A stretch of 32,000 bases of DNA from Bacillus benzoevorans (GTDB taxonomy: Bacteria; Bacillota; Bacilli; Bacillales; Cytobacillaceae): assembly GCF_014207535.1 (NCBI RefSeq), contig NZ_JACHGK010000016.1, forward strand, positions 33,069-65,068, in the 5' to 3' direction. The translations under genes were made by a program, and so were the position numbers. Numbering within the stretch: position 1 is the first letter of the stretch; each line of letters opens with the position of its first letter. Of the stretch, positions 4,641-30,327 are shown in pieces. The notes below the pieces were generated by a model. The model had not been told where the DNA came from, did not search any database, and saw only the letters and a program-made list of their open reading frames with translations.

Positions 4641-6398
4641 TCAGGCATAGTAAAACTTGATCTTTTTATAATGTGGTATCTCATTCCTAAGAGCTGTACA
4701 AATATTACGATAGCTTGATATATTAAGTTCCCTAGCTGCCTCAACAGATGAAGAAAAAGTACCCAATATATTCCCATCGAGATCAGTCGCAATAATTTTA
4801 CCCTTATTCTTACCTTTCTTTACCTTACTTTTTCGTATTATTTGTTCAATTCTAGCTGTTGAAAGAGACCCATATAATTCTGATATATGTTTTTGTATTT
4901 TAATTACTTTTAAGCCCCTTTTACTTAGTTCGATAATTAATTTATCTCGCTCATCCTTTATTTCTTTTCTCAAAATTTTTGTATCTTCATACTCATGACT
5001 TAAATCAATGTCTATATATGGTTTTAGAGTTTGATTATTTAGGATTCTTCCTATTTGCCTTCTACTCAGATCGACTTTTTTGGAAATTGCCTCATGTGAT
5101 TCACCGCTTTTACGCAAATTAAAGACCTTTATGCAAAGGTTCGTATAATAATTTTGAGATTCCTTTAATAAAATCACGGGATCCTGAAGAATAGATTTAA
5201 ATTCCCGTACCTTTCTAAGTAATAGTTCCTTATTAATCAGGAATTTTTCATTTTGATCAACCCATTGAAAAATGCTCAGTTTCTTAAAACCTTCTGAAGT
5301 GATTTTATTATATCCTTCTTCTCCCAATAAGAATACAACTTCTAAATCATAGTCTTGATATTTCTTTATCTCCTTGTACAATCTAGTATGGATACTTAGT
5401 TTAATTTCAATTACTTTTTTATCTATTTTACATACTATATCTAGTCGATTATTCTGATCTTTTTGCTGAAAATCAAAATAGTCGCTATGCTCTTTTATCA
5501 TCCTTATTATACAATGCTCAACATAAATACCTAATATTCTTCTATCCTCAAGGTTATAATAGTCTTTTAGATCCTCACCACAGAAGGTTAAGAACTTATT
5601 AAAGGGCATTATATTTGTTATTGCAGCATAAAGATCTTGATATTTTTTTCTAATTACAGATGTAGTTAATGTTTCTTTTTCTTTGATTAGGCTAAAACAT
5701 GCAATACATTGACTTTTAGTCCAGAAACCGTCCATTTTCACATTTGGTAACTTTTGTTGGAACCAGTATGATGCCAAAGTCTTTTCATTCACTTTATTTT
5801 CTAACCTAGAGACGAATAATAAAATCTCTTTTGAAATTCTGCTTTTGTGGTGAAGTGGTAAATATATTTGATTTTTCTTATTAGGTGGCTTCAAGACGTA
5901 CCCAGTTTTATCCTTCGCTTTTATGGAATCAGCTTCAATTTTAAACATTCCTTCATCATAAGCCTTCTTTAGATTATTAAGGAAATCAATAAAATTTACT
6001 TCTTTAGTTGGCCTGCACTTGTCACAAACTTCGGGCTTCCCTTTAATCCTTTTATCATAATGCAGATAGTACTTGCATCTGAATATTTTATTACATGCAT
6101 CACAAATACATAATATTTCAACTTTAGAGTTCGGAAGCAAGTCACTCGGACTTACTAAAAACTCATCATTAGCTTTGGTAAACGTGTACCCTTTTTCTAT
6201 ATAATAGCTATTATATTCTTTTCTTCCAATCCACTTTGTTGGATACAGTTTTGGAAAAGTGGATTGATTACTCGTAAGGTGTTGTTTTGCCACTTCAAAA
6301 TAATCACCTAAATCTGTAAACCTATATCCAATAGATTCAAAGTGTTCTTTATTAGATTCAGTCCAATTCATTAATCCATGATCCGTAACTAATGCCAT
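4641..6398 (-). CDS. composite nuclease-like / DNA-binding protein (Cys-rich finger, PD-(D/E)xK-like core, HTHs, NUMOD1-like C-terminus)
   Basis: 585-aa ORF. Cys cluster CICDACNK...CDKC at residues 97-128. E294...D320-IV-x9-E331-I-K333 (LDIVCKIDKKVIEIK). HTH-like LRKSGESHEAISKKVDLSRRQIGRIL. C-terminal IIATDLDGNILGTFSSSVEAARELNISSYRNICTAL resembles the NUMOD1/IENR1 DNA-binding module of homing endonucleases. Confidence 0.65.
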   Translation of the reverse strand: MALVTDHGLMNWTESNKEHFESIGYRFTDLGDYFEVAKQHLTSNQSTFPKLYPTKWIGRKEYNSYYIEKGYTFTKANDEFLVSPSDLLPNSKVEILCICDACNKIFRCKYYLHYDKRIKGKPEVCDKCRPTKEVNFIDFLNNLKKAYDEGMFKIEADSIKAKDKTGYVLKPPNKKNQIYLPLHHKSRISKEILLFVSRLENKVNEKTLASYWFQQKLPNVKMDGFWTKSQCIACFSLIKEKETLTTSVIRKKYQDLYAAITNIMPFNKFLTFCGEDLKDYYNLEDRRILGIYVEHCIIRMIKEHSDYFDFQQKDQNNRLDIVCKIDKKVIEIKLSIHTRLYKEIKKYQDYDLEVVFLLGEEGYNKITSEGFKKLSIFQWVDQNEKFLINKELLLRKVREFKSILQDPVILLKESQNYYTNLCIKVFNLRKSGESHEAISKKVDLSRRQIGRILNNQTLKPYIDIDLSHEYEDTKILRKEIKDERDKLIIELSKRGLKVIKIQKHISELYGSLSTARIEQIIRKSKVKKGKNKGKIIATDLDGNILGTFSSSVEAARELNISSYRNICTALRNEIPHYKKIKFYYA

Positions 6399-6696
6399 AG
6401 TATACCACCGTCAAAATTGATTTTTCTATATTATTGGCGTGAATGGTCATTTTAATACATTGAACTAGAGGATGAGTATGTTTTTAATTTTATTAATAAG
6501 AAAAGCCCCATAGATCCTTCTCCATGAGACTTTCCTCTAATTTAATTTATGGTGGTTCTCAATGTTTTATCATTGTTAAAACATTACCCCCAAAACTTCA
6601 ATCTGTTCCTCTTCTGTTTTTGGACCTATCTCATGATAAATCATATATTTTTCAAATACCTTTTGACCTTCTGTAAATAACATAATAATCCCCATC

Positions 6697-7017
6697 CTAC
6701 ATTCCTTTAAATCTAATTTTTAATGCTTCCATGACCAATTGTTTATTGGTTAAATCGAGATAATCGATATCATTTAAATCCACCTTCACCTCGCCGTTGA
6801 ACAAATGAATGGCAAGCCGCAACATAAACTGTTCACTTTTTGACCACGGTTTCGATACCTTTAATAACTGCTTCACATGAATAAAACCATGATTCAAATC
6901 GAAATATTTAGCTGTTAAATAGTTTTGTAGTTTGCTATGGTTTTGAAATAAATTCAATACGGATGCCCATTCTGCATTAACATTGGCCATATGAGCCACA
7001 TCTTCTTTGGATATCAT
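6697..7017 (-). CDS. hypothetical protein co-transcribed with an XRE regulator
   Basis: 106-aa ORF starting 22 nt after the stop of the 69-aa XRE gene. AAGGAG upstream. No family recognised. Confidence 0.55.
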   Translation of the reverse strand: MISKEDVAHMANVNAEWASVLNLFQNHSKLQNYLTAKYFDLNHGFIHVKQLLKVSKPWSKSEQFMLRLAIHLFNGEVKVDLNDIDYLDLTNKQLVMEALKIRFKGM

Positions 7018-7039
7018 TTTCTTCTTTTCACTCCTTCAT

Positions 7040-7249
7040 CTATTCAATAATAAATAAACCGTTGAATTCCATTTGGAGTTTTTCGGTTATCTTCTTTGCA
7101 ACATCCGGAGATGGATGTTTCTTCAGATTAATAATTTGATTAAGATATGCTTCACTCGTGCTGATTTCCTTTGAAAACTGACGCTGTGAGTAACCCTTCT
7201 CCATCAAAATGATTCTAAATTGAACTGGATCCTTTAACGATATTTTCAT
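7040..7249 (-). CDS. XRE/Cro-C1 family HTH transcriptional regulator
   Basis: 69 aa. EKGYSQRQFSKEISTSEAYLNQIINLKKHPS is a classic HTH_3 helix-turn-helix. Confidence 0.85.
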   Translation of the reverse strand: MKISLKDPVQFRIILMEKGYSQRQFSKEISTSEAYLNQIINLKKHPSPDVAKKITEKLQMEFNGLFIIE

Positions 7250-7385
7250 TTATGTCGCCTTTCTTTTAAAAAGTAGATGCTTTGTTTTAACTCTTGATTA
7301 CATATTATTACCGGATACCTCTCTCAACAAATGGGAGTTTGAGAGGCTTAACTTAAACTCTCATTTGACAAATTTCTTGAATGTG

Positions 7386-7598
7386 CTATTTAGTAATTTT
7401 AAATACATCATGAAAATTAAGCTTTAATACAGAGACAATTTTCTTCGCAACCGAGGGACTAGGATTCTTCTTGTCATTCATTATTTGATTTAGATAATTC
7501 TCACTCATCCCTAAGCTTTTTGAAAAAGCCCGCTGAGAATAACCTTTTTCAATTAAGGCCATCCGCAGCTTCTCCTTATTCTTTAGTACAATCTTCAT
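7386..7598 (-). CDS. XRE/Cro-C1 family HTH transcriptional regulator (paralogue of 7040-7249)
   Basis: 70 aa. EKGYSQRAFSKSLGMSENYLNQIMNDKKNPS aligns along its whole length with the neighbouring 69-aa protein. AGGAGG Shine-Dalgarno upstream. Confidence 0.85.
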   Translation of the reverse strand: MKIVLKNKEKLRMALIEKGYSQRAFSKSLGMSENYLNQIMNDKKNPSPSVAKKIVSVLKLNFHDVFKITK

Positions 7599-7625
7599 TT
7601 AGAATGGACACCTCCTACAAATAGA

Positions 7626-7693
7626 AAAGGGATAACCGCCAATAGATTCGTAGCTTTAAACTACTCGTCTTTGAATTGGGGTTATCCCTTTTT
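7626..7693. repeat. 13-bp perfect inverted repeat with a ~40-nt spacer next to the XRE gene start
   Basis: AAAAGGGATAACC (7626-7638) pairs with GGTTATCCCTTTT (about 7680-7693). It begins about 10 nt upstream of the XRE Shine-Dalgarno. Confidence 0.4.
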
Positions 7694-13877: not shown

Positions 13878-13960
13878 TTAATACTATTAACACACAGTCA
13901 TTCATTTTGAATGGCTCGTATACATACAAGCTACAAAGAAATAGATAAGATTACATCATT

Positions 13961-14249
13961 TGTAACCATTAATAGATACCATGACAAAACGTTGTAATAT
14001 CAATTCATTCCTCATCCTACCTTTCTTATTTTTCTCTTCTATTTAACTATTCGTTGCGAGCAATAGTAACCATTAAACAGAGTAATACACTAATTCGTTC
14101 ATTATTCACTTCAAAAATAGATCTGTCATAGGTTTGGTAACGATTAATAGATACCATAACGAACATTAATAAATCAGCTTTTCTTTGACTTATTTTCCTG
14201 AACTACCATCCGTATCTACTATTCGTTACTATTAATCGTTACCATAAAC
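13961..14249 (+). repeat. iteron-like repeat cluster A (two degenerate ~175-bp tandem units)
   Basis: TGTAACCATTAATAGATACCATGAC (13961-13985) and GGTAACGATTAATAGATACCATAAC (14136-14160) share the exact 14-mer ATTAATAGATACCA. ACTATTCGTT...TAACCATTAAAC (14046-14078) pairs with ACTATTCGTT...TTACCATAAAC (14218-14249). The cluster lies between two convergent gene ends. Confidence 0.7.
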
Positions 14250-18936: not shown

Positions 18937-19506
18937 TTAGCAAGAATAAAAATATTGATCAGCAGTACACTTTGAATTAATCATAAAGTCTTTATTGTTC
19001 AGCGCTTTTCTTATCAGTTCCTTTTTATTCGGTATATGTAGCGTTGGGACACTGTTCATAGAATCCCGAAAAGCAGGCAATTTATCCCACAAATTCTTTA
19101 TCTGTTGTTTAAAGGTTTTCGAACTGCAATTTATAATATCACTCTTATCACTATACTCTGGATAAACCACGATAACCGGTAGCCCTAATGTACCAATTCC
19201 ATAGTTTATTTCTTCCCTTAATGCTTTGCTATTTTTAGTTATTGAACTTAAAAACAAAATAATATTCTTTGAATTATTAAGCCTATCATGTAAACGGGGT
19301 TTCAAGGTCTTTTCCCAATCACTTCCATCCCTTACATTATAGTTTTTATTATGTGAGTCAATGAACGGAAAAGTGCTATCGTTAGATTTCCAAGCTTTTA
19401 ATAGATTGTAAGATACAAAATCCTTCGTGGCTGATGCGCCCAAATTACTTTCATTAAAAGGTTCACTTACATAAAACGCTGCGTAATTACCATTCCTATA
19501 AGCCAT
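18937..19506 (-). CDS. thsB: TIR-like (DUF1863-type) protein, Thoeris ThsB-like
   Basis: 189 aa. YAAFYVSEPF...FIDSH...DWEKTLKPRLHDRLNNSKNIILFLSSITKNSKALREEINYGI...LPVIVVY follows the TIR-like pattern of ThsB proteins. AAGGAG Shine-Dalgarno 8 nt upstream. The start overlaps the upstream gene by 11 nt. Confidence 0.65.
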   Translation of the reverse strand: MAYRNGNYAAFYVSEPFNESNLGASATKDFVSYNLLKAWKSNDSTFPFIDSHNKNYNVRDGSDWEKTLKPRLHDRLNNSKNIILFLSSITKNSKALREEINYGIGTLGLPVIVVYPEYSDKSDIINCSSKTFKQQIKNLWDKLPAFRDSMNSVPTLHIPNKKELIRKALNNKDFMINSKCTADQYFYSC

Positions 19507-20332
19507 TCTCTACACTCCTTAATTTATAAAAATTAATTTTATCCTTTATAGATTCGTGTATTACTATTGAAACATGAGAAGGATAGGTAAACTTGATTCT
19601 ACTTACTTTAAATGACCATATTAATAATTCTAGCAATTCTTGCTCAGATACCATATTATACTCTTTAAATCTTGTCATTCCTGAACCTAACAGTGGTATT
19701 GACACTGTACGTCCTCCATATACAATATCTACTTCATTCCAAAAGTTAATTAAGAAATTAATATAATCATTCATATATAAATAGGCTCTATCGTTATCGT
19801 CAAACTTGGTAAAAGCAGTGAGCAAGTAGTTGCCATGTTGAAAAATTGTTCCGAGCTTATACTGCTTCTTTTTGCCAACTTCTCTATCTTCATTAATAGA
19901 AGTAATTTTTTCATTTAACTTTTTATCCGTATCAATTAAATAATCAAGTTCTTGCACGGCATCTACTTGTTGTTTAATATATATACCGTTAAGAGTTCTT
20001 TCTGAAATGATCTTATTATCAACACACGTGTCAAAATACTCATTGAAAGAGATTACTTTTAATTCTTCCTCTTCAAAAATATCTCCTATCTTAACACGTA
20101 CGGTTGAATTATTGATATTTAATGTCACGTGGTTAGTAAGATTAGCTCGAATCCACATAATAAAGTAAATAATAAGTAAAAACAGAAAGACTACTATTCC
20201 CGTGATAGGCTTATATTTATTAGGAATATTAATCGCAATTAAGACAAAAGACATTAAAATACTTATTACTGATAAGACTGAAAAATAATTTTTCAATAAA
20301 TTTTTATCAAAAAAGTTCACCTTTATTTTCAT
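19496..20332 (-). CDS. thsA: two-TM plus Macro-domain protein, type II Thoeris ThsA-like
   Basis: 278 aa. Two N-terminal hydrophobic helices (VLSVISILMSFVLIAINI, ITGIVVFLFLLIIYFIMWI). These are followed by VKIGDIFEEEELKVISFNEYFDT...SIPLLGSGMTRF, which fits Macro-domain core motifs. Directly upstream of, and overlapping, the TIR-like gene. Confidence 0.6.
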   Translation of the reverse strand: MKIKVNFFDKNLLKNYFSVLSVISILMSFVLIAINIPNKYKPITGIVVFLFLLIIYFIMWIRANLTNHVTLNINNSTVRVKIGDIFEEEELKVISFNEYFDTCVDNKIISERTLNGIYIKQQVDAVQELDYLIDTDKKLNEKITSINEDREVGKKKQYKLGTIFQHGNYLLTAFTKFDDNDRAYLYMNDYINFLINFWNEVDIVYGGRTVSIPLLGSGMTRFKEYNMVSEQELLELLIWSFKVSRIKFTYPSHVSIVIHESIKDKINFYKLRSVENGL

Positions 20333-20734: not shown

Positions 20735-20765
20735 AGCCCCTGCTACCATTACGGCGGCAGGGGCT
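20735..20765. terminator. GC-rich hairpin 20 nt beyond the stop of the 291-aa gene
   Basis: AGCCCCTGC (20735-20743) pairs with GCAGGGGCT (20757-20765) around a 13-nt loop. The T-run (GTTTTTGTT) is on the plus-strand side only. Confidence 0.45.
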
Positions 20766-20784: not shown

Positions 20785-21660
20785 CTACCTTTTTTTGTTA
20801 TTAGTCGGAATATCTGTCAACGATTCTCTAAATCTTTTATCATCAATAGGCATGTATTGTTCGTTTATGATTAGCTCACTGCCCAATATTTCTGATAAAG
20901 CAATTGATTCCCACTCTTCCAATAAAGCAGGATTTTTCTCTAATATCATGTTAATGTTTCCGATAACATTGGGGTCACTTAGTCTCTCGACCATTGCTTT
21001 TCCTTCAATAAATTGGCCTGATGGATTTGCAGTATCTACGATATTTGCATGTAATATTTTCCATACCTTTCTTGCTCGAATAACAGAAAGCATGAATATA
21101 TCAAGAAGTTCCTTTTGTGCTTCTTCGCTTGTCATATTAATAGTGTACTGTTCGTAAGCATTATCAAATTCAACTGTTGCCGAAGCTGACATCGTCTTAC
21201 TTGATGTTGCATTCTCAGAACTTCGAGTTTTGCTTTGTTCATCTAATATCTGCTGTGCTTTTGTTTTTCTTGTATTGATACTGACAGTTTTTTTGTTCTT
21301 ATTCTTATTCTTTTTCTTTCTATTCTGCAACCATTGATCAAAACTTGTAATAGCTTTATCTGTCAGATATTCAGTCAGATATTCAGCTGTCTTAATTGCC
21401 AATGTTTCCGAAACATCAATAATAAACTGGCCAACCGGCGAGATATCCTTATACCTTTTAGGATCTCCACCTCTATCGTTAGTTCTAGTCAATTGAGTTT
21501 TGTCATCTATGATTTCAAGGTCATAGGCTACACCAGAATATGTACCATCACTTCGACGATAACCGCCTGCACCCAACTTATCACTGGTTATATCATTTCC
21601 TTTTTTATCTTTCTTTGGAACCTTACCAATGACTACATCATAATCCTTGTTTTCATCCAC
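20785..21660 (-). CDS. uncharacterised bipartite protein (gene B of the candidate operon)
   Basis: 291-aa ORF with GTG start at 21660 and AAGGAG 9 nt upstream. A ~110-aa N-domain (GAGGYRRSDGTYSGVAYDLEIID), a ~50-aa Lys/Asn/Ser/Thr-rich linker (NRKKKNKNKNKK...SSENATSSKT) and a ~130-aa helical C-domain. No family recognised. Confidence 0.65.
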   Translation of the reverse strand: MDENKDYDVVIGKVPKKDKKGNDITSDKLGAGGYRRSDGTYSGVAYDLEIIDDKTQLTRTNDRGGDPKRYKDISPVGQFIIDVSETLAIKTAEYLTEYLTDKAITSFDQWLQNRKKKNKNKNKKTVSINTRKTKAQQILDEQSKTRSSENATSSKTMSASATVEFDNAYEQYTINMTSEEAQKELLDIFMLSVIRARKVWKILHANIVDTANPSGQFIEGKAMVERLSDPNVIGNINMILEKNPALLEEWESIALSEILGSELIINEQYMPIDDKRFRESLTDIPTNNKKR

Positions 21661-21689
21661 TTTCCATTACTCCTTACCACTTTTCTACT

Positions 21690-22910
21690 CTAATTCCATT
21701 CAATTTCGGAACTCATCTCCGCTTCATAATAAGAACGTGCCTCATTTTCATATTCTGCTACGGCATCCAGCATTGAATCACAGCGATCTAAAAAGTTAAG
21801 CAATGAACGCATATATTCATATGCATTCTTTAAATCTAGCTTTTTATCATTAATCCTGTATTCCAAACTATAAGAGGTTGGATATCTAAAGTTGTCCCCA
21901 TTTTTATCTATATCATTTATTGCGAACAACTTCTGCTCAACGACATCTATTAATTCTGTATCCTGTCCTTGTTCATCAGCATAGTATTGTATTACTGGTT
22001 TTACATTTTTCCAAAGGTCCTTCTTTATGAGATGACTCTTCCTTTTTGAAAGGAAAACATGTTGTGGTACACCATTCTTGACCATGCTATAAAAAAGTCT
22101 CTTTAAACATAATTCTATTGCATTTCGCAGCATGAATATCAAGGGATATGTCTTTTCTTCTTTGGATAATTTATCGGTCTGGAAAATGAAGTCAGCAACT
22201 GCAATATAGCCTGTTACCTTTACATGAAAACCATCATCAGACAATCGTTGCCAAAAATAACAGTTCCCAATTCCATGAGATGCCATTATAAAGAATTGCG
22301 GTTTGAGCTTGTCATCAAACTCATCTATTGTATCAATAGCACCACACTCAATGCACTTTTTTATCAGTGCAAAAGCCTGCAGCATATTATTTGCCACATC
22401 AACATTATCAATAAACTTACCTCTATATTGAGAAAGAAAATCGTCCTCGAAAGGAAAACGAAACATATCTGACTTCGCATCCACCAATTCCAGCGATGTT
22501 AAATATGATACGATCCATTGCTTTTCTTCATCAGTTAAGTAATTCTCTGCATTGCTCTCAACGTACTTGCCCCATAGCATCGGCAAGTCATGGCAGCATT
22601 TTTCAAAAACATCCTGCATATCTCTTTTCTTGGTGTTGACCCTGCACAACAGAGCTTTTATTCCAAGTTCCATACTTTGTCTAAGCATAAATATGCCCGG
22701 TAGAAACCACATATCTGATTTTACATTATCATGCCCACTTTCAATAACATTCTTGAATATATGAAAACCACAATTATAGAATTTATATGACAGCTCTTTA
22801 TAATCCAAAAAAGGATTTAAAGACCACTTTATTTCAACTTGATATTCTGTATCTTCTATTTTCCAAAAATCCATACCAGCTGAAGGCCATAGCCATTTTC
22901 CTAAATCCAT
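21690..22910 (-). CDS. uncharacterised protein built from two duplicated helical modules (gene A of the candidate operon)
   Basis: The track ORF extends to 22967, but AAGGAGG lies 5 nt before the in-frame ATG at 22910 (MDLGKWLW...), giving 406 aa. Residues ~45-188 and ~228-380 share the same ordered motifs: FMLRQSMELGIKALL / FMLRNAIELCLKRLF, CHDLPMLW / SHLIKKDLW, SDMFRFP / GDNFRYP. Confidence 0.75.
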   Translation of the reverse strand: MDLGKWLWPSAGMDFWKIEDTEYQVEIKWSLNPFLDYKELSYKFYNCGFHIFKNVIESGHDNVKSDMWFLPGIFMLRQSMELGIKALLCRVNTKKRDMQDVFEKCCHDLPMLWGKYVESNAENYLTDEEKQWIVSYLTSLELVDAKSDMFRFPFEDDFLSQYRGKFIDNVDVANNMLQAFALIKKCIECGAIDTIDEFDDKLKPQFFIMASHGIGNCYFWQRLSDDGFHVKVTGYIAVADFIFQTDKLSKEEKTYPLIFMLRNAIELCLKRLFYSMVKNGVPQHVFLSKRKSHLIKKDLWKNVKPVIQYYADEQGQDTELIDVVEQKLFAINDIDKNGDNFRYPTSYSLEYRINDKKLDLKNAYEYMRSLLNFLDRCDSMLDAVAEYENEARSYYEAEMSSEIEWN

Positions 22911-22993
22911 GCTTACCTCCTTAACAACCATCTTGCCGCTGAAAATCTTGACAACCAATTGGCTCACACAACCTGACCGATTTTGGGTTCAAA

Positions 22994-23019
22994 GTTTCCG
23001 TGGAACTGTTTCCGTGAAC
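22994..23019. promoter_or_regulatory. tandem near-palindromic 13-mers upstream of the candidate operon
   Basis: GTTTCCGTGGAAC (22994-23006) is immediately followed by TGTTTCCGTGAAC (23007-23019), 85-110 nt upstream of ATG 22910. Each unit is close to the palindrome GTTCC-N-GGAAC. Confidence 0.3.
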
Positions 23020-23220
23020 AGAAAAACAAAGGCAGACTGGCACTTTTTTCCAATCCTATCCTGCCTGAAAATCCCTTTAATTCAAGGTCCTTTCATAATC
23101 TTATTTACCCGCTTTTGACATCAATACTATCGTCTCAACATGCGTTGAGTATATGTGACAACATAAGGAGTTAACAGATGTACTAGACTACTCATTATAT
23201 GGTTTTTATGGGCCGTATGC

Positions 23221-23447
23221 CGTTACTTATAATCGTAACTATTAATGGTATCTATTATTAGTTACGAAACAATTTTCACTCGTAAAAGTAAAATAATTTT
23301 GTAGTGAATTATACTAATAGAGACGAATAGTGGTATCTATTAATTTTATTGCCCCCACTAAGCCTGCCCAACTTTTTGGCTGAAGTAAATATCAATAAAG
23401 ACGATTAAGAGTCTCTGATAATAGTAACTAATGTTGGTCTCTATCAG
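23221..23447 (-). repeat. iteron-like repeat cluster B (same family as cluster A, opposite orientation)
   Basis: Plus-strand TGGTATCTATTAAT (23331-23344) is the exact reverse complement of the cluster A 14-mer. ATGGTATCTATT at 23245-23256 matches 12 nt. ACGAATAGT (23323-23331) is the reverse complement of ACTATTCGT. A degenerate unit sits at 23415-23447. Confidence 0.65.
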
Positions 23448-23536: not shown

Positions 23537-23755
23537 TTAGTCCTCTTCATAAATCGAGTAACTAAAATCAATAAATTCATCTATGTCTAATTTTTCTTCG
23601 GTTTGTTTTATTCCCCAGCCAAAACGTTGGTAATCAGTTCCTCCATCAATGAAAATGCTGCCACAGGAACACAACCTAAAATCATGTTCATGTTTCGATT
23701 CAATAACCTCATCACACTTTTTACAACGTATTTTATTTACAAGAATTCTTCGCAT
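23537..23755 (-). CDS. small zinc-binding protein
   Basis: 72 aa with CKKC...CSC Cys pairs (IRCKKCDEVIESKHEHDFRLCSCGSIFIDGG). Confidence 0.55.
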   Translation of the reverse strand: MRRILVNKIRCKKCDEVIESKHEHDFRLCSCGSIFIDGGTDYQRFGWGIKQTEEKLDIDEFIDFSYSIYEED

Positions 23756-24267: not shown

Positions 24268-24435
24268 TTATTGATCATTTGATTCAAACTTTGCGAGTAT
24301 TTCCAGTACCTCTTCTTGGGATATTTTTAAATCAGATGATATTTCATTAACTGACTTACCAGCCAGATGGAGCTTAATAACGTTTATTGCAGTATTTCGA
24401 GCCTTTATTAAACTTTGCTCAATGCCACTAATCAT
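24268..24435 (-). CDS. small HTH protein downstream of the BREX helicase
   Basis: The track ORF starts at 24453, but GAAGGAGG lies 8 nt before the in-frame ATG at 24435 (MISGIEQSL...), giving 55 aa. LAGKSVNEISSDLKISQEEVLEIL looks like a sigma-70 region-4/LuxR-type HTH. Confidence 0.55.
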   Translation of the reverse strand: MISGIEQSLIKARNTAINVIKLHLAGKSVNEISSDLKISQEEVLEILAKFESNDQ

Positions 24436-24511
24436 GAAATAATCCTCCTTCAATTACCACAAACTATTGGAAACAAAGAAGCTTTTTTATATCAAATGAC
24501 TTTCTCCCTAA

Positions 24512-27500
24512 CTAGATCCCAACGATTTGTTCCATTTTCACTTCTTCAACAATATAATGTTGATTTACCACATAAACATATACTGATCCATTTAATTCTT
24601 GGTAATCATTTAATTCCAATTGTTGTGAAAGCAACTCTAATGACGGTGTTAATAAAATAAATCGTGTATTACTATCTGCTTCTTCACTCGTGAAATCGAC
24701 TAAACCAAATGCATTCTTAACACGGATGTTTAATCGCCCATTATGATATTCATACTCTTTTACAACTTGTATAAAATCTTTTGGAATAACACGTGCTGCA
24801 CTTACAATTGGTTGTACATGCAGTTGTGTAATCGGCTTAATGGATTGTAACTGAATACTTCTTTCTCTTTCAATATTTTCAAGCCGATCTTTACTACGTT
24901 CCTCTATGTCTTCAATTTGAGTGTAGGTTTGGTTAATTAATGCGCTATTTTTATTATTTAAATTATCACTTAAATAATTAGTTAATCTTTCCTGTAGTGT
25001 TTGCATTTGTTCATCAAATGAACGACGTAAATAAGTACTCTTTCGGTTTAAATAATCATCTCGTTTCATTTGAACAGATTGAAGTATCTTTTTCGCTTGA
25101 AGAATAGATTCTTTTTTAAATGATTTATCTTCTGTACCTACTATATTGATTAATTCAAATTGCTTCTGGAATAATAAATACGGATCTACTTGAATGAATT
25201 CCCCAGTTTTCCTTTTAGCTAATAACATTAATTCTTGTTCTAACTCTCGACCTGTACCATCAACTACACTAATACGACTAATTTCTAATGTTAAAGGTTC
25301 ACTAACAAATGTTTTTACTGTACAAATTGGTAAAGCCACTTGTTGCAGCTCTTGACTCGCTAATTCCATCGCTAATTTTTTTAATGGATGGTCATTCGGT
25401 AATATTGATAACTGTTCTGTTTGTTTATCTGGTCTTAATGTAAACCGTAATGATTCATCAGTTCTTAAAGAATATTTTCGCTTCTTAATTAGTTCACGAA
25501 TATTTTTAGGGTAACGATCAATTCGAACTGTATTGCCATCATTTGAGATATTTACTTTAATACGTGTTTCTTCAAACTGTTTTACTACAAACTCACCATA
25601 GACTCGCGAAGGCATACTGCTAATTGAAATTTCTTGATATGCACGTCTTGCACCCGGTAAATCAAAACTGGAATCATCTAAGCGTTCTTGTTTTGCTAAT
25701 TCTAGTAATCGTTCATGTTCTTCAGATAATGTTTTTTCCATTTGTGCAATTAGCTCATCTAAATTTTCACGGCCGCTAATCGCTTCCTCCATTAAGTGAG
25801 ATAAATCGATATTGTTTTCTTCTAGTACTTCACCAATAAAATCATAGACCTGATCTTGTCCCAAATCCGTGCGCATTTGTTCCATCTTATCAAGTAGACG
25901 TATCAATACATCTCCTTCACGTGTATTCTTCGCAACAAGATTAAAGACGAATACTTCATTCTTTTGTCCAATACGATGAATACGTCCCATACGCTGTTCT
26001 AAACGATTTGGATTCCACGGAATATCATAGTTAATCATTTGATTACAGAATTGAAGGTTGATAGATTCTCCCCCGGCATCTGTAGCAAGCATAATTTGTA
26101 CATCATTTCGGAATCGCTCCACTTGTTCACGACGTTGATCCATCGAAAAATTCCCAACGATTTTTGTGACTTCAGGGACATGCTGTAGGAGCTTTCGTTC
26201 AAGGTAATACAAAGTATCTTTTGATTCCGTAAAAATAAGAATCTTTTCTCCTTTGGATAACAATCCATCCTGACCAAATAACGTGTTTTCAAGCTCTAAA
26301 TATTTTCGTTCAATATCTTGATATACGAGCATCTCTGTTTTACGAACTAATCCATCTAGAATCTCTATTTCTAACTTTAGTTCCTCTAAATCAATAACAT
26401 CGGTTTCTCCTTCAACTAAAGTCTCTATTTCTTCCTGCTCTTCTGTTGAAAGTTCGTCGTATTCAAATGGCTCAATCGATTTATTGGCCGTTAACTCAGA
26501 CTCTAATAATTCTTGTAACTTTTCTTTACGTCGTTTAAGGGATAAATAAATAGCATCTAATGACGAACTTAGGCGACGTTGTAAAATCATCATCGCAAAT
26601 GCTACGTTTGGTTTATTATTTTGTTTTGCTTGATTAAAATGCTCGCGTGCATAAGAAGTTACTTCTTCATAAAGCTCACGTTCGCCATAACTTAAATCAA
26701 AGGTAATTGTCGTTGTTGTTCTTTTCGGGAATAACGGAGTACCATCAAAATTTTTCATTGTCTCCTTTAAACGACGAATAACAAACGGATTACTCTTTTC
26801 ATATATAGAATCACCTGTATTTAAACGAGAAAAAATATCATGGTCCACCAAACTCATTAAATGCCGAAAATTTTCTTTATCTCCTTTATGCGGTGTTGCA
26901 GTTAGTAATAAGCAATGCTCTGTGTGACGAAGTAAACTCTCCCCAAGTTGGTAAATTTTCGTACGATTCACTTTACGTTTCTTGACGCCATGCGTATATG
27001 CAGCCATTTTATGTGCTTCATCGACGATTACTAAATCAAACTGAGCTTTTAAAATAAAGGCTTTAATTTCTTCACGTGAAGCCCAATAAATTGATGCAAT
27101 TACTTTATCATGTGATTCAAATGGATTCACTTCACTTGAGCTATTTAATAAACTTCGATTTATTATCGTAAACTCTTCTCCAAATTTATCTTTTAGCTCT
27201 TCCTGCCATTGCTTTAATACTAGAGGGGGAACTAAAATTAATATACGCTCTGCAGCTTGTCTGGCAATTAACTCACGAATTAACATTCCGGACATAATTG
27301 TTTTCCCTGCTCCGGGATCATCCGCTAATAAATATCGTACTTGAGGTGACTGTAACATGCGGCTATACACAGCTTCTATTTGGTGTGGTAGTGGGATAAT
27401 CTTTTTGTTTCCTCGCGCACGTGACTTCGAAAATTTATCCTCTGTCTTTAAAATGTAATATTGTAAATAGTGTTGCAGTCTTTCAGAATTAAAGGAACTT

Positions 27501-27685
27501 TCCTCTTCTTTAATGTTCTCTAATTGACCTAGCTGCACCCTATCTAAATACTGTTCATAGTATTTATTAGTTTTACGCCCAATTGATTCAACTAAAAACA
27601 AATCATCATCAATTTCTTCAAAATGCTTTATTTCAACAATTTCCGGCCAGAAAGAGCCTTTAATAATCTCTCCTACTTTTAACAT
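24512..27685 (-). CDS. brxHII: SNF2-family DEAH helicase, BrxHII-like
   Basis: 1057 aa. Motif I LADDPGAGKT, motif II VIVDEAHKM, motif III LLLTATP, motif VI WNPNRLEQRMGRIHRIGQ, then a ~400-aa C-terminal region of unknown function. Immediately downstream of pglZ on the same strand. Confidence 0.8.
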   Translation of the reverse strand: MLKVGEIIKGSFWPEIVEIKHFEEIDDDLFLVESIGRKTNKYYEQYLDRVQLGQLENIKEEESSFNSERLQHYLQYYILKTEDKFSKSRARGNKKIIPLPHQIEAVYSRMLQSPQVRYLLADDPGAGKTIMSGMLIRELIARQAAERILILVPPLVLKQWQEELKDKFGEEFTIINRSLLNSSSEVNPFESHDKVIASIYWASREEIKAFILKAQFDLVIVDEAHKMAAYTHGVKKRKVNRTKIYQLGESLLRHTEHCLLLTATPHKGDKENFRHLMSLVDHDIFSRLNTGDSIYEKSNPFVIRRLKETMKNFDGTPLFPKRTTTTITFDLSYGERELYEEVTSYAREHFNQAKQNNKPNVAFAMMILQRRLSSSLDAIYLSLKRRKEKLQELLESELTANKSIEPFEYDELSTEEQEEIETLVEGETDVIDLEELKLEIEILDGLVRKTEMLVYQDIERKYLELENTLFGQDGLLSKGEKILIFTESKDTLYYLERKLLQHVPEVTKIVGNFSMDQRREQVERFRNDVQIMLATDAGGESINLQFCNQMINYDIPWNPNRLEQRMGRIHRIGQKNEVFVFNLVAKNTREGDVLIRLLDKMEQMRTDLGQDQVYDFIGEVLEENNIDLSHLMEEAISGRENLDELIAQMEKTLSEEHERLLELAKQERLDDSSFDLPGARRAYQEISISSMPSRVYGEFVVKQFEETRIKVNISNDGNTVRIDRYPKNIRELIKKRKYSLRTDESLRFTLRPDKQTEQLSILPNDHPLKKLAMELASQELQQVALPICTVKTFVSEPLTLEISRISVVDGTGRELEQELMLLAKRKTGEFIQVDPYLLFQKQFELINIVGTEDKSFKKESILQAKKILQSVQMKRDDYLNRKSTYLRRSFDEQMQTLQERLTNYLSDNLNNKNSALINQTYTQIEDIEERSKDRLENIERERSIQLQSIKPITQLHVQPIVSAARVIPKDFIQVVKEYEYHNGRLNIRVKNAFGLVDFTSEEADSNTRFILLTPSLELLSQQLELNDYQELNGSVYVYVVNQHYIVEEVKMEQIVGI

Positions 27686-27816
27686 TTCAGCATCCCCCTC
27701 AAATAATTACGATCAATCAACTTAATTTAAATTATATAGCAATCACCCAGATACTGTTAGAAGAAATAAAAGACAAAAAAAAATAGAGAACTATGTAAAA
27801 TAGTCCTCTAGCTTCA

Positions 27817-30327
27817 TTAGTAAAGCGCATTATACATATGAATTGTAAATTCTGTATCGCGATATGGTGTGACTTTATCATCTTCCACGGTTACCATTTT
27901 CAACTCACAAGTTTGCCCTGTTGGATAATAGTTTTCTACAAGGTTAAATATAAGTTGCTCCGTACGTTCATGGTTTTCACCAGTCATATCAAATGTCCAT
28001 TCAATTTCGTTCGAAATTCGTTCACCATTCAGGTAAAATGCAGCTTGAATTGTTCGTGCCTTAAATTCTTGTGAAATACTTTGTTCTTGATATATTGGCA
28101 CTTGGATACGGAATCCTGTGATGACACGTTTTGGGATGGCCACACTGATTTCAACAGGAATTGCTTGTGAAGTACGACGATAATCAATTAGTGGCACAAT
28201 TACTTCTTGAGGTGTTGCACCGCCGTGTACAAACTGTAATCCTCCACCGCCAATAAATCGGTTTACGCCTTTAGCAATCACTTTTTCAACACCTTCTAAT
28301 GTTGAAAAACCATCTGGCACATTAATAGCTCCATCATCTATTAGTAAATCATGACCAACAGCAAAGCGACGATTCGAATCAATGATTTTACCTTTAACAC
28401 TCACTACTTTAATATCATTTTCAATTCTTGGATACTGATAAAGGAATCCGTGATCTGCTGTTATAAAAATTCGTTTTGCTTGCCATTTAGATAACCGATC
28501 AACAGCAATTGATAATTCTTTTATTGCTCGTTCCGCAGCTATATAAGTATCTCGTTCAGATTTTGCAGAATCACCTGCTGCATCGATTACATCATGATAT
28601 AAGTAAACGAGACGTTTTCCTTTTAAATTTTCATCTGCTGTCGCTCTTGACCAGTCTAATAAATCGGTTAAACGATAGGCAATTGCTTCTGGATGAGTTG
28701 CTTGTAGAATTTTTGTACGGTTTGCTAATCCATTTGTAGGTTGGTCATCTGCTAATACTGTTCCATTTTCAGTAATCGTTAATACTTTATTTGGTAATAA
28801 AGATGCCATACCTAATTGTGTATACGTTGGCATATTCGCAACTAACGGACTGATAGAGGCAATTCCATTCGAACGCAAATTTAAACGAGATACTAATTCT
28901 GCCCCTACTTCATATCGTAATGCATCCGAAATAATCACAAATACGCGTGTTGATTCTTTATCAAGAATAGGTTGCACAACTTCTTTATAAAATTTAGCCT
29001 GTTTTGGTAACTTTCCTACTTCTGCAGTTTCTAAAAGATAATTGGTCTCTTGTGCAATTTTCAACGAGTATTTATTTTCATACCAGTTTGTTAGTTGCTC
29101 AGCTAAAGTTTCTAGCATTTCATTATTCTCTAATTGCATATAGCCGGTCATGAAACGTCTATAAGCTTGATCAATTAAATAAAGTTCGCTTGTATATTGA
29201 ACATATAAAGGCTCACGCGTATCATATTGCTTCAAGAACATTTTATACTTCGTCAAATCAACTGCATCTAACAATACACTTAATAAACGTTGAATTTGTT
29301 CATTTCGTTTCGCCCAATGCATTTTTAACCGTTTATGCAAAATGTCTTTCCAAGCATCAAAATTGGATGTTTGATGAAGGAGTTCAGTCGTTAATTTACT
29401 CGTCAATAAATGATCAATGACAGGAAAAGTTGAAACGTTGGCATATTGTTCGATAGGACGTTCACCTAACACCTCTACAATTGAAAACCTTTGTTCGATT
29501 TCCTTTATATAATTTTCTAATACTTCTACTTCAATTTCTTTTTTATGGTGCCATTCATCAATAAATAAAGCACAAACATTTCCGCGTGTTGTTTCATATT
29601 TCTTTTGTAAAGACTGTTCTTCAAATTGTGCATGACGTTGGAAATGAGCATACAAAACATGCTCCATTAAATACTGCAATGTCAAATCATTTGATTGTAA
29701 ACCAAAGTATTCCGAAATGAGCTCCCACATACGATTCGAGCTAAACCGTTTTGATATGGCTTTATACACTTCATTTGTTTCTTCTTGTAAACCACGCAAC
29801 AATAAATGGCGAGTAATTTCTTCCATATTTGCAATGGGTGCGCCTGTTAGTACTGCTAACATAGCATACTCTATATCACGTTCACTAGCATTAGGGGGTA
29901 CGACTTTCTTTAATTTATTTTTACGCTCTGCACTTTTAAAAAAGTCTCCATATTCCTTAATCAAAGGTCTTAAAATGGCATCACTTACTTGCAACTGTTC
30001 TGCAAGTAAAGCATTAGTATCAGCTTTAAACTCTGTACCGTAAAGCTCCATATCCAGTAAAAAATTGTCTTCTATCGCTGGTTTTGCAAAATCAGCATAT
30101 AATAAAAAAGAATCTCTTTTCTTTTCCACCTCGATTTCTAATTTAAGCGTAAAGAAATTATTACGCGTTAATTGGCGGATATGAATTGGTTGCTCTGCTA
30201 ATGTTTCTTCTAAATCAGAAACAGTGTATTCTCCTTGCTCGTCATACCAAAAAATAACCGTGCGCGGCTTATTTTTCTTATATAGCTCGTCCTCTATTCG
30301 CTCTTTTAACAGTTCAATGACATTCAT
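27817..30327 (-). CDS. pglZ: BREX alkaline-phosphatase-superfamily protein PglZ
   Basis: 836 aa. N-terminal VIFWYDEQGEY, then VFVIISDALRYEVGAEL and IFITADHGF, the PglZ-domain metal-site motifs. Sits between a pglX-like gene and a helicase gene. Confidence 0.88.
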   Translation of the reverse strand: MNVIELLKERIEDELYKKNKPRTVIFWYDEQGEYTVSDLEETLAEQPIHIRQLTRNNFFTLKLEIEVEKKRDSFLLYADFAKPAIEDNFLLDMELYGTEFKADTNALLAEQLQVSDAILRPLIKEYGDFFKSAERKNKLKKVVPPNASERDIEYAMLAVLTGAPIANMEEITRHLLLRGLQEETNEVYKAISKRFSSNRMWELISEYFGLQSNDLTLQYLMEHVLYAHFQRHAQFEEQSLQKKYETTRGNVCALFIDEWHHKKEIEVEVLENYIKEIEQRFSIVEVLGERPIEQYANVSTFPVIDHLLTSKLTTELLHQTSNFDAWKDILHKRLKMHWAKRNEQIQRLLSVLLDAVDLTKYKMFLKQYDTREPLYVQYTSELYLIDQAYRRFMTGYMQLENNEMLETLAEQLTNWYENKYSLKIAQETNYLLETAEVGKLPKQAKFYKEVVQPILDKESTRVFVIISDALRYEVGAELVSRLNLRSNGIASISPLVANMPTYTQLGMASLLPNKVLTITENGTVLADDQPTNGLANRTKILQATHPEAIAYRLTDLLDWSRATADENLKGKRLVYLYHDVIDAAGDSAKSERDTYIAAERAIKELSIAVDRLSKWQAKRIFITADHGFLYQYPRIENDIKVVSVKGKIIDSNRRFAVGHDLLIDDGAINVPDGFSTLEGVEKVIAKGVNRFIGGGGLQFVHGGATPQEVIVPLIDYRRTSQAIPVEISVAIPKRVITGFRIQVPIYQEQSISQEFKARTIQAAFYLNGERISNEIEWTFDMTGENHERTEQLIFNLVENYYPTGQTCELKMVTVEDDKVTPYRDTEFTIHMYNALY

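Follow-up and report, generated by a model that had tools for sequence, protein, structure and literature searches.

The window analysed here is a 32,000-nucleotide (nt) stretch of Bacillus benzoevorans DNA (contig NZ_JACHGK010000016.1, positions 33,069 to 65,068 of the forward strand). Its subject is a pair of adjacent minus-strand genes, gene A (406 residues) and gene B (291 residues), whose products are each 100% identical to a B. benzoevorans hypothetical protein. Downstream of the pair lie ThsB-TIR and ThsA-Macro, and upstream of it lie DUF7695, an SNF2-type helicase and PglZ; each of these genes shares the minus strand with the pair. A first-pass annotation, made from the sequence alone, had proposed the pair as the best candidate for a new two-gene defence system, placed between a Thoeris pair and a BREX operon. 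Its reading of the DNA is accurate, since the two open reading frames (ORFs), their Shine-Dalgarno sites and the gap between them are as described, and the flanking ThsB, ThsA, helicase and PglZ genes are confirmed on the same strand. The two-gene system itself is not borne out, as gene A homologues in a survey of 98 loci lack a conserved gene B. We hold with moderate confidence that A and B are two independent cargo genes lying side by side in the B. benzoevorans defence island, and that gene A is a stand-alone defence gene of the HEPN-like RNase type.

The spacer between the two genes is 29 nt long and is predicted to be unstructured, which makes co-transcription plausible; A and B are probably co-transcribed in B. 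benzoevorans. The hairpin that follows the gene B stop codon, also described in the first pass, does exist and folds stably (centroid -23.7 kcal/mol, z = -2.56), but its T-run is on the plus strand, so that it is not a canonical intrinsic terminator of the minus-strand transcript.

Tandem HEPN-like modules in gene A

Gene A belongs to a family with 320 clusters in a 90%-identity database and, in an exhaustive search, 435 representatives at 50% identity. Nearly all members are about 400 residues long and span both modules of the protein. The internal tandem duplication, first noticed in the single sequence, is found again when family profiles are compared. Plain BLAST of one half against the other gives no significant match (E = 3.1); in hhalign the profiles of the two halves do align (probability 89.8%, E = 1.8e-6), and the FMLRxxxELxLK and DxFR[FY]P motifs fall opposite their counterparts. 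A joint alignment of modules 1 and 2 from 39 diverse members extends over the whole module length; it has E, K, H and R invariant across the two types of module, and R, D, F and P nearly so. Each module keeps the pattern R-x3-E-x3-K, then H, then D-x6-R. These alignments indicate that the duplication is real but ancient. The family alignment comprises 72 full-length sequences, with identity down to about 20%. Its invariant residues are E81, L82, K85, H107, D144, R151, R262, E266, R342 and P344, while R77, K270, H293 and D335 are kept in at least 90% of the sequences. The residue pairs that the first pass had picked out, R77/R262, H107/H293 and R151/R342, thus all fall at invariant or nearly invariant positions.

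The statement that neither protein can be placed in a named family stands for Pfam, NCBIfam, PHROGs and PADLOC, with the exception of one HEPN match of gene A in Pfam that lies below threshold. This match, to PF05168, covers residues 248-375 with an E-value of 5e-4. Neither protein matches any family of PADLOC-DB v2.0.0 at E-values up to 1. When the 72 diverse family members are scanned singly, 18 of them match PF05168, the best with an E-value of 3.7e-7. Since membership can be carried over from these relatives by transitivity, there is good evidence that module 2 belongs to the HEPN superfamily and, through the duplication, module 1 likewise. By these profile matches, gene A represents a large, new and unannotated family of tandem non-canonical HEPN-like proteins. 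The HEPN idea had been put forward in the first pass as a hypothesis; the profiles support it, and the structure comparisons bring no significant match.

Several observations weigh against the assignment of gene A as a HEPN-like defence RNase. The PF05168 score of gene A, 20.6 bits, is under the gathering cut-off of 22. The Rx4-6H motif is absent, as the first pass had pointed out: neither R151 nor R342 has a His at +5 to +7 (FRFPFEDD and FRYPTSYS), and the modules could for this reason be non-catalytic. The AlphaFold model is mostly helical, with two similar modules, a predicted local distance difference test score (pLDDT) of 95.9 and a predicted template-modelling score (pTM) of 0.93, but Foldseek finds no significant match to it in PDB or BFVD (best E 0.28; Csm6 appears with E of about 1.8 and a probability of at most 0.13). 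Sequence-profile searches of PDB with full-length gene A and with a single module find nothing. PADLOC has no model for the family, and a PADLOC scan of 137 pooled gene A neighbours is swamped by methyltransferase models and gives no clean figure for defence enrichment. The ten 'mad2' matches in that scan are probably ten rlmD genes. A single-module profile, run in a large protein search for single-module relatives or annotated architectures, recovers only truncated fragments of the same family.

The conserved His of each module, H107 or H293, lies about 44-49 residues N-terminal of R151 or R342. According to a survey of the HEPN superfamily, AbiV and HEPN-T/AF0298 keep the Arg, lose the His and carry a conserved upstream His, which has been proposed to build an alternative active site (PMC3710099). 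The arrangement in gene A fits this AbiV/HEPN-T variant, and thus excludes the canonical catalytic class but not the superfamily. It is improbable that the modules are catalytically dead HEPN-like domains that bind an RNA or nucleotide ligand and serve as a sensor or scaffold. The missing Rx4-6H would suit such a role, HEPN families without the motif can be inactive binders (PMC3710099), and the HEPN domain of AbiA is reported to be enzymatically inactive (PMC13064643). Yet R, E, K, H, D and R are invariant or nearly so in both modules down to about 20% identity, which argues for chemistry rather than binding alone, and AbiV, which shares the variant pattern, is a HEPN RNase reported to degrade rRNA (PMC13064643).

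The tandem duplication, together with residues that are invariant in both copies, suggests that the two modules of gene A could contribute to one composite RNase site. Cas13 has two HEPN domains in one polypeptide, and the modules of gene A would pack in a comparable way, as an intramolecular pseudo-dimer that stands in for the HEPN pair of Cas13 or for a HEPN homodimer. The conserved Arg and the upstream His would replace Rx4-6H in the active site, as proposed for AbiV and HEPN-T. Gene A would act alone, in a defence of the abortive-infection type that is switched on by infection.

Although gene A has features in common with several known systems, it differs from each of them. AbiV (Lactococcus) and HEPN-T/AF0298 share with it a helical HEPN-type module in which the motif Arg is kept, the His at +5 to +7 is lost and a second conserved His lies N-terminal; AbiV also shares the abortive-infection or defence context and is a reported RNase. 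The single module of AbiV, however, is about 200 residues long and must pair with a second copy, while the 406-residue chain of gene A contains two. No Pfam AbiV-family match is reported for gene A or its relatives, and no conserved RNA antitoxin lies beside it. The HEPN dyads Csx1 MJ1666 and Swt1 (listed in PMC3710099) likewise have two HEPN-type modules per chain, so that a composite site without dimerisation is possible. Unlike Cas13 and these dyads, gene A is small, carries a non-canonical motif and comes without a CRISPR array, guide RNA or CARF/Rossmann sensor domain; neither sequence nor Foldseek comparison detects similarity to Cas13, Csx1 MJ1666 or Swt1. ApeA, Tha, AbiJ and AbiD/F are stand-alone HEPN genes of defence islands and prophages that cleave RNA after a phage trigger. 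Gene A resembles them in gene context, but it has no PADLOC match, and it has tandem modules and no extra sensor domain.

If gene A is an active RNase, it would represent a large, unannotated, stand-alone defence family of gut and soil Firmicutes, with 435 clusters at 50% identity, and would supply a model that is missing in Pfam, NCBIfam and PADLOC. It would join two non-canonical HEPN modules in a single chain, as is otherwise best known from Cas13, and the family would offer a compact system for studying HEPN sites that work without the Rx4-6H histidine.

Distribution and partners of genes A and B

The 98 loci surveyed include 24 genome loci with gene A relatives, loci obtained by exact-protein look-up, and loci with gene B relatives, 50 of them from metagenomes and 7 viral. 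With both family profiles run over the ORFs in hmmsearch, A is found in 35 and B in 60 of the loci, but only the window, L018 and L074 have relatives of both. L018 has B upstream of A, the reverse of the order in the window, across a gap of 620 nt; in L074, 4 kb separate B from a weakly matching A-like gene (E 8.8e-8) on the opposite strand. A tblastn search with A and B over the first 35 loci places B near A only in L018. The closest homologues lack the partner as well: the 2 kb downstream of the gene A homologue of L008 (84% identical) contain no gene B, and the gene B homologue of L036 (85% identical) has no gene A and adjoins Tn7-like genes. The immediate neighbours of gene B form the arrangement c3-B-c4 in 25 loci, DUF6508-B in 5 and GmrSD-B in 2, while A-B is seen in the window only. 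Because the closest homologues lack the partner and gene B usually has other partners, the interpretation as a two-gene system is rejected; judged from these loci, A and B are not a conserved two-gene system.

The co-occurrence of A and B in three loci, with tight spacing in the window, counts against full independence and leaves room for a local functional link between them in the window. It is unlikely, though, that they form a genuine, recently assembled system, in which A would be a HEPN-like effector or toxin and B a sensor, regulator or antitoxin made from the same transcript. The short, unstructured spacer without a terminator, the separate Shine-Dalgarno site of gene B and the co-occurrences in L018 and L074 are in keeping with such a system, and the varied toxin-like or nuclease neighbours of gene B elsewhere (HEC-07-like/HicA-like, GmrSD and DUF6508) would fit a swappable accessory. 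Nevertheless, the pair is missing from about 30 other gene A contexts and from more than 55 gene B loci, the closest homologue of each gene does without the other, and the one other close pairing has the reversed order and wide gap. In L028 and L016 no co-directional gene follows gene A, which indicates that gene A needs no protein partner. Tight spacing in a defence island is thus insufficient to infer a two-gene system; comparative context has separated A from B and indicated recurrent gene B partners, namely a ribbon-helix-helix (RHH)/zinc-ribbon gene, a HEC-07-like gene and GmrSD.

Other relationships were considered and ruled out. The proteins downstream of gene A homologues are not divergent forms of gene B, as BLAST shows no relation between them. 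The 455-residue protein found after A and the 476-residue protein found after B fall into separate clusters. The C-terminal domain of gene B is not a HEPN-like relative of the gene A module (hhalign probability 0.4%). A phage origin was also rejected, as neither protein had a tblastn match among 50,697 phage records; gene B relatives are present on 7 IMG/VR contigs, beside serine recombinases.

The N-terminal domain of gene B is variable and comes in two versions that differ in sequence; a basic low-complexity linker joins it to a C-terminal domain that is strongly conserved, with the string NMTSEEAQKELL...HANI...NPxLLEEW...LG...PI. The AlphaFold model (pLDDT 75 overall) is confident only in an N-terminal beta domain and the C-terminal helices, with a low-confidence linker, and so agrees with the layout of N-domain, linker and helical C-domain read from the sequence in the first pass. 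Searches of Pfam, PADLOC, NCBIfam, PHROGs and PDB give no match; a PDB search with the family profile returns only a low-complexity artefact, and Foldseek finds no significant match to the model in PDB.

The commonest setting of gene B, in 25 loci, consists of three serine recombinases, an RHH and zinc-ribbon gene of about 146 residues, gene B, the 476-residue protein, a complete GmrSD/HEC-06 gene and a small ORF of the rlmD cluster. The GmrSD enzyme matches HEC-06 with E 5e-59, and the 476-residue protein has a weak HEC-07 match (E 1.1e-7) and a weak HicA-like C-terminal match (E 0.0015). In L047 (6552-11040) and about 25 similar loci, for example L051 and L055, the cluster from the 146-residue RHH/zinc-ribbon gene to GmrSD lies directly after the three recombinases. 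In a second setting, gene B is found with a gene of 226 residues and DUF6508 before it and DUF262 genes after it; in L035, gene B in this DUF6508 setting lies between McrBC and Wadjet. Elsewhere it follows GmrSD_N, or comes directly after a protein that clusters with type I HsdR. The PADLOC candidates HEC-06 (GmrSD-like) and HEC-07 are its usual neighbours, but neither is present in the window and gene B itself matches no PADLOC model.

If gene B takes part in a multi-gene system, the RHH/zinc-ribbon-B-HEC-07-like-GmrSD cluster is a more promising candidate for it than the A-B pair. From these contexts, gene B appears as defence-island cargo of the same class of element as gene A, with partners of its own. 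In the reading that we favour, it would be a separate family that is juxtaposed with gene A here, and for that reason probably co-transcribed with it. A bolder proposal joins the two views: gene A would be a self-contained, single-chain double-HEPN RNase of a widespread immune family, using Arg and a distal His and requiring no guide, partner or dimerisation, while gene B would be a swappable accessory, either sensor or regulator, that plugs into gene A here and into HEC-07-like, DUF6508 or GmrSD proteins elsewhere, so that the window would hold a newly formed effector-accessory pair. We regard this as quite unlikely.

The rlmD-side edge and the leader of gene A

A frequent upstream gene of gene A encodes an rRNA methyltransferase of the RlmD/RumA type (TRAM plus U5-methyltransferase). 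In five loci (L010 and L026-L029) rlmD is the immediate upstream neighbour, at a distance of 204-293 nt, and in L011, L020 and L024 it is no more than four genes upstream. In L028 gene A is the sole gene between rlmD and three serine recombinases, which are on the opposite strand. The rumA gene is a known integration site of triple-serine-recombinase elements. Gene A, as judged from its neighbours, is cargo of triple-serine-recombinase integrative elements that target rlmD/rumA, and is placed at their rlmD-side edge.

A block of conserved DNA upstream of gene A corresponds to the last approximately 14 codons of rlmD (L028, L010, L026 and other loci). The window has it as well, some 200 nt before gene A, and there it reads THVETIVLMSKAGK-stop, compared with HVETVVLMSKVK-stop in L028, and a hairpin with a U-tract occupies the position of the rlmD terminator of other loci. 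The remnant and the terminator-like hairpin indicate that gene A arrived in the Bacillus island with the attachment (att)-side flank of an rlmD-targeting element. Gene A should then have a promoter of its own; gene B lies outside the module formed by the rlmD flank and gene A. In some loci, as in L013 (3508-5346), the rlmD ORF continues into a C-terminal extension of about 110 residues (…KVHTAYIAEVKR…EAIKDALK…), which is found on its own, too, as a small ORF at the distal end of gene B-type elements (L051 11199-11546 and similar). This suggests that the integrating element may supply rlmD with a new C-terminus.

The position at the edge, seen in at least 8 loci, raises another explanation, namely that gene A serves the mobile element, for instance by setting the direction of recombination (a recombination directionality factor), by regulation or by countering defences. 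The isolated position of gene A between rlmD and the recombinase genes in L028 and the rlmD remnant that accompanies it in the window are consistent with such a role. We give it little credence, however, since distant members are found on Bacillaceae plasmids beside a type I restriction-modification (R-M) system or a TIR gene cluster and with no serine recombinase in the annotated stretch of these plasmids, many loci have gene A among defence genes and far from att sites, and the HEPN-like signature with duplicated catalytic-type residues is typical of RNase toxins. Gene A is carried as a single gene, both at the rlmD-side edge of the triple-serine-recombinase elements and in defence islands.

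The first pass had inferred a defence role for both genes from their surroundings, and their relatives are indeed found among defence genes: Gabija-like OLD and UvrD, GmrSD, AbiH, Dcm-Vsr, type I R-M, TIR, McrBC and Wadjet. Gene A is found after the Gabija-like pair of OLD-ATPase and UvrD genes. In L004-L007 it starts 14 nt after a GmrSD_N (DUF262) gene, and GmrSD is near it in L018 and L030. This linkage recalls the HEPN-ParB/DUF262 operons, recurrent HEPN-ParB/DUF262 and HEPN-R-M linkage being recorded in the HEPN survey (PMC3710099), but most gene A loci do not show it, and the surroundings of gene A in the window contain no DUF262 gene. The downstream neighbours of gene A differ from locus to locus: a 455-residue transmembrane (TM) protein, Vsr-Dcm methyltransferases, a SEC-C protein, an AbiH gene that overlaps the gene A homologue, or none. 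Neighbour clustering reveals no recurrent small ORF beside gene A, and several loci have no co-directional neighbour, which does not fit a type II toxin-antitoxin pair.

Two further features of the gene A neighbourhood were observed. In five distinct contexts (L004 11284-12579; L010, L012, L029 and L030) the gene A homologue is followed by a protein of 431-455 residues with an N-terminal TM helix, which matches nothing in Pfam or PADLOC; its start sometimes overlaps the gene A stop (by -10 or -4 nt), and it may be a partner of gene A in particular lineages. L014, a contig of an uncultured Lachnoclostridium, has a relative of the 1057-residue SNF2-type BREX helicase of the window, belonging to the same BLAST cluster, at 4954-7638, three genes upstream of a gene A homologue. 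This is the second case of gene A near such a helicase.

The HEPN abortive-infection toxins AbiV, AbiF and AbiD use RNA antitoxins (PMC13064643), and gene A has no conserved protein partner; both points are compatible with gene A being a type III toxin, similar to AbiV or AbiF, with a small-RNA antitoxin in its 5' leader or flank. Direct repeats are indeed present upstream of some homologues. In L010, L026 and L027, which belong to one lineage, TGGATTAGATG is repeated directly four times in the stretch from the rlmD stop to the Shine-Dalgarno site of gene A, about 150 nt upstream of the gene; L013 has three copies, a number equal to the maximum in shuffled sequences, and L018 (9800-10000) has four copies of another motif, AGAACAGGATT. 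The last copy abuts the Shine-Dalgarno site in L010, L026, L027 and L018. These repeats are lineage-specific and could be autoregulatory or RNA-antitoxin-like. In most gene A loci, the window included, upstream repeats do not rise above shuffled controls. Neither Rfam nor Tandem Repeats Finder gives a match or a tandem array near gene A, the upstream gap in L004 is only 14 nt, and the leader in the window is not unusually structured (z = +1.8). On this evidence a repeat antitoxin RNA is not a feature of the gene A family, although a non-repetitive RNA partner may exist, and the type III toxin explanation as a whole is very doubtful.

Features and repeats of the window

The positions of the features in the window are listed in the table below. 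Mobile-element genes elsewhere in the window encode DUF3987, Replic_Relax and HTH_17 proteins; no serine recombinase is found among the annotated ORFs.

Table 1. Positions of genes A and B, their modules and signals, and the neighbouring features in the window
Feature	Position	Strand	Basis
Gene A, 406 aa (residues), ATG 22910 to stop 21690	21690..22910	-	ORF call; protein is tandem non-canonical HEPN-like by profile
Gene B, 291 aa, GTG 21660 to stop 20785	20785..21660	-	ORF call; no known family
Gene A module 1, about aa 28-195, with R77, E81, K85, H107, D144, R151	22326..22829	-	Conserved columns; aligns with module 2
Gene A module 2, about aa 222-406, with R262, E266, K270, H293, D335, R342	21693..22247	-	Contains Pfam HEPN match, aa 248-375
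Shine-Dalgarno AAGGAGG of gene A, 5 nt before ATG	22916..22922	-	Sequence reading
Shine-Dalgarno AAGGAG of gene B, 9 nt before GTG, within A-B spacer	21670..21675	-	Sequence reading
GC-rich hairpin 3' of gene B	20735..20765	-	Fold; T-run on plus strand only
3'-end remnant of rlmD/rumA-type rRNA methyltransferase, reads THVETIVLMSKAGK-stop	23110..23151, possibly to 23187	-	Conserved DNA block, tblastn, translation
Terminator-like hairpin and U-tract after rlmD remnant, upstream of gene A	23020..23065	-	Fold; equivalent position in other loci
Operator-like repeat, three copies upstream of gene A	23230..23446	.	Inverted relative to copies at 13959-14247
Type II Thoeris pair: ThsA (TM and Macro), ThsB (TIR)	18937..20332	-	Window annotation
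SNF2-type helicase and PglZ (BREX-type genes)	24512..30327	-	Window annotation
DUF7695 zinc-ribbon-like protein, 72 aa, between BREX-type helicase and gene A	23537-23755	-	
61-aa ORF without Pfam match, between BREX-type helicase and gene A	24268-24453	-	

The first pass had also described the segment as bounded by repeats, and this description holds. A 20-nt motif, GGTAAC-N-ATTAATAG-ATACC, has 5 matches against 0.01 expected by chance, at 13961-14243 and 23247-23266, and weaker copies are found at 23315-23342 and 23419-23446. The repeat is 20-28 nt long and partly palindromic, and its copies form two clusters of about three each, which are inverted relative to one another. From their sequence and arrangement, the copies look like operators of some regulator or element boundaries. 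The two clusters flank a segment of about 9 kb that contains the Thoeris genes, gene B and gene A.

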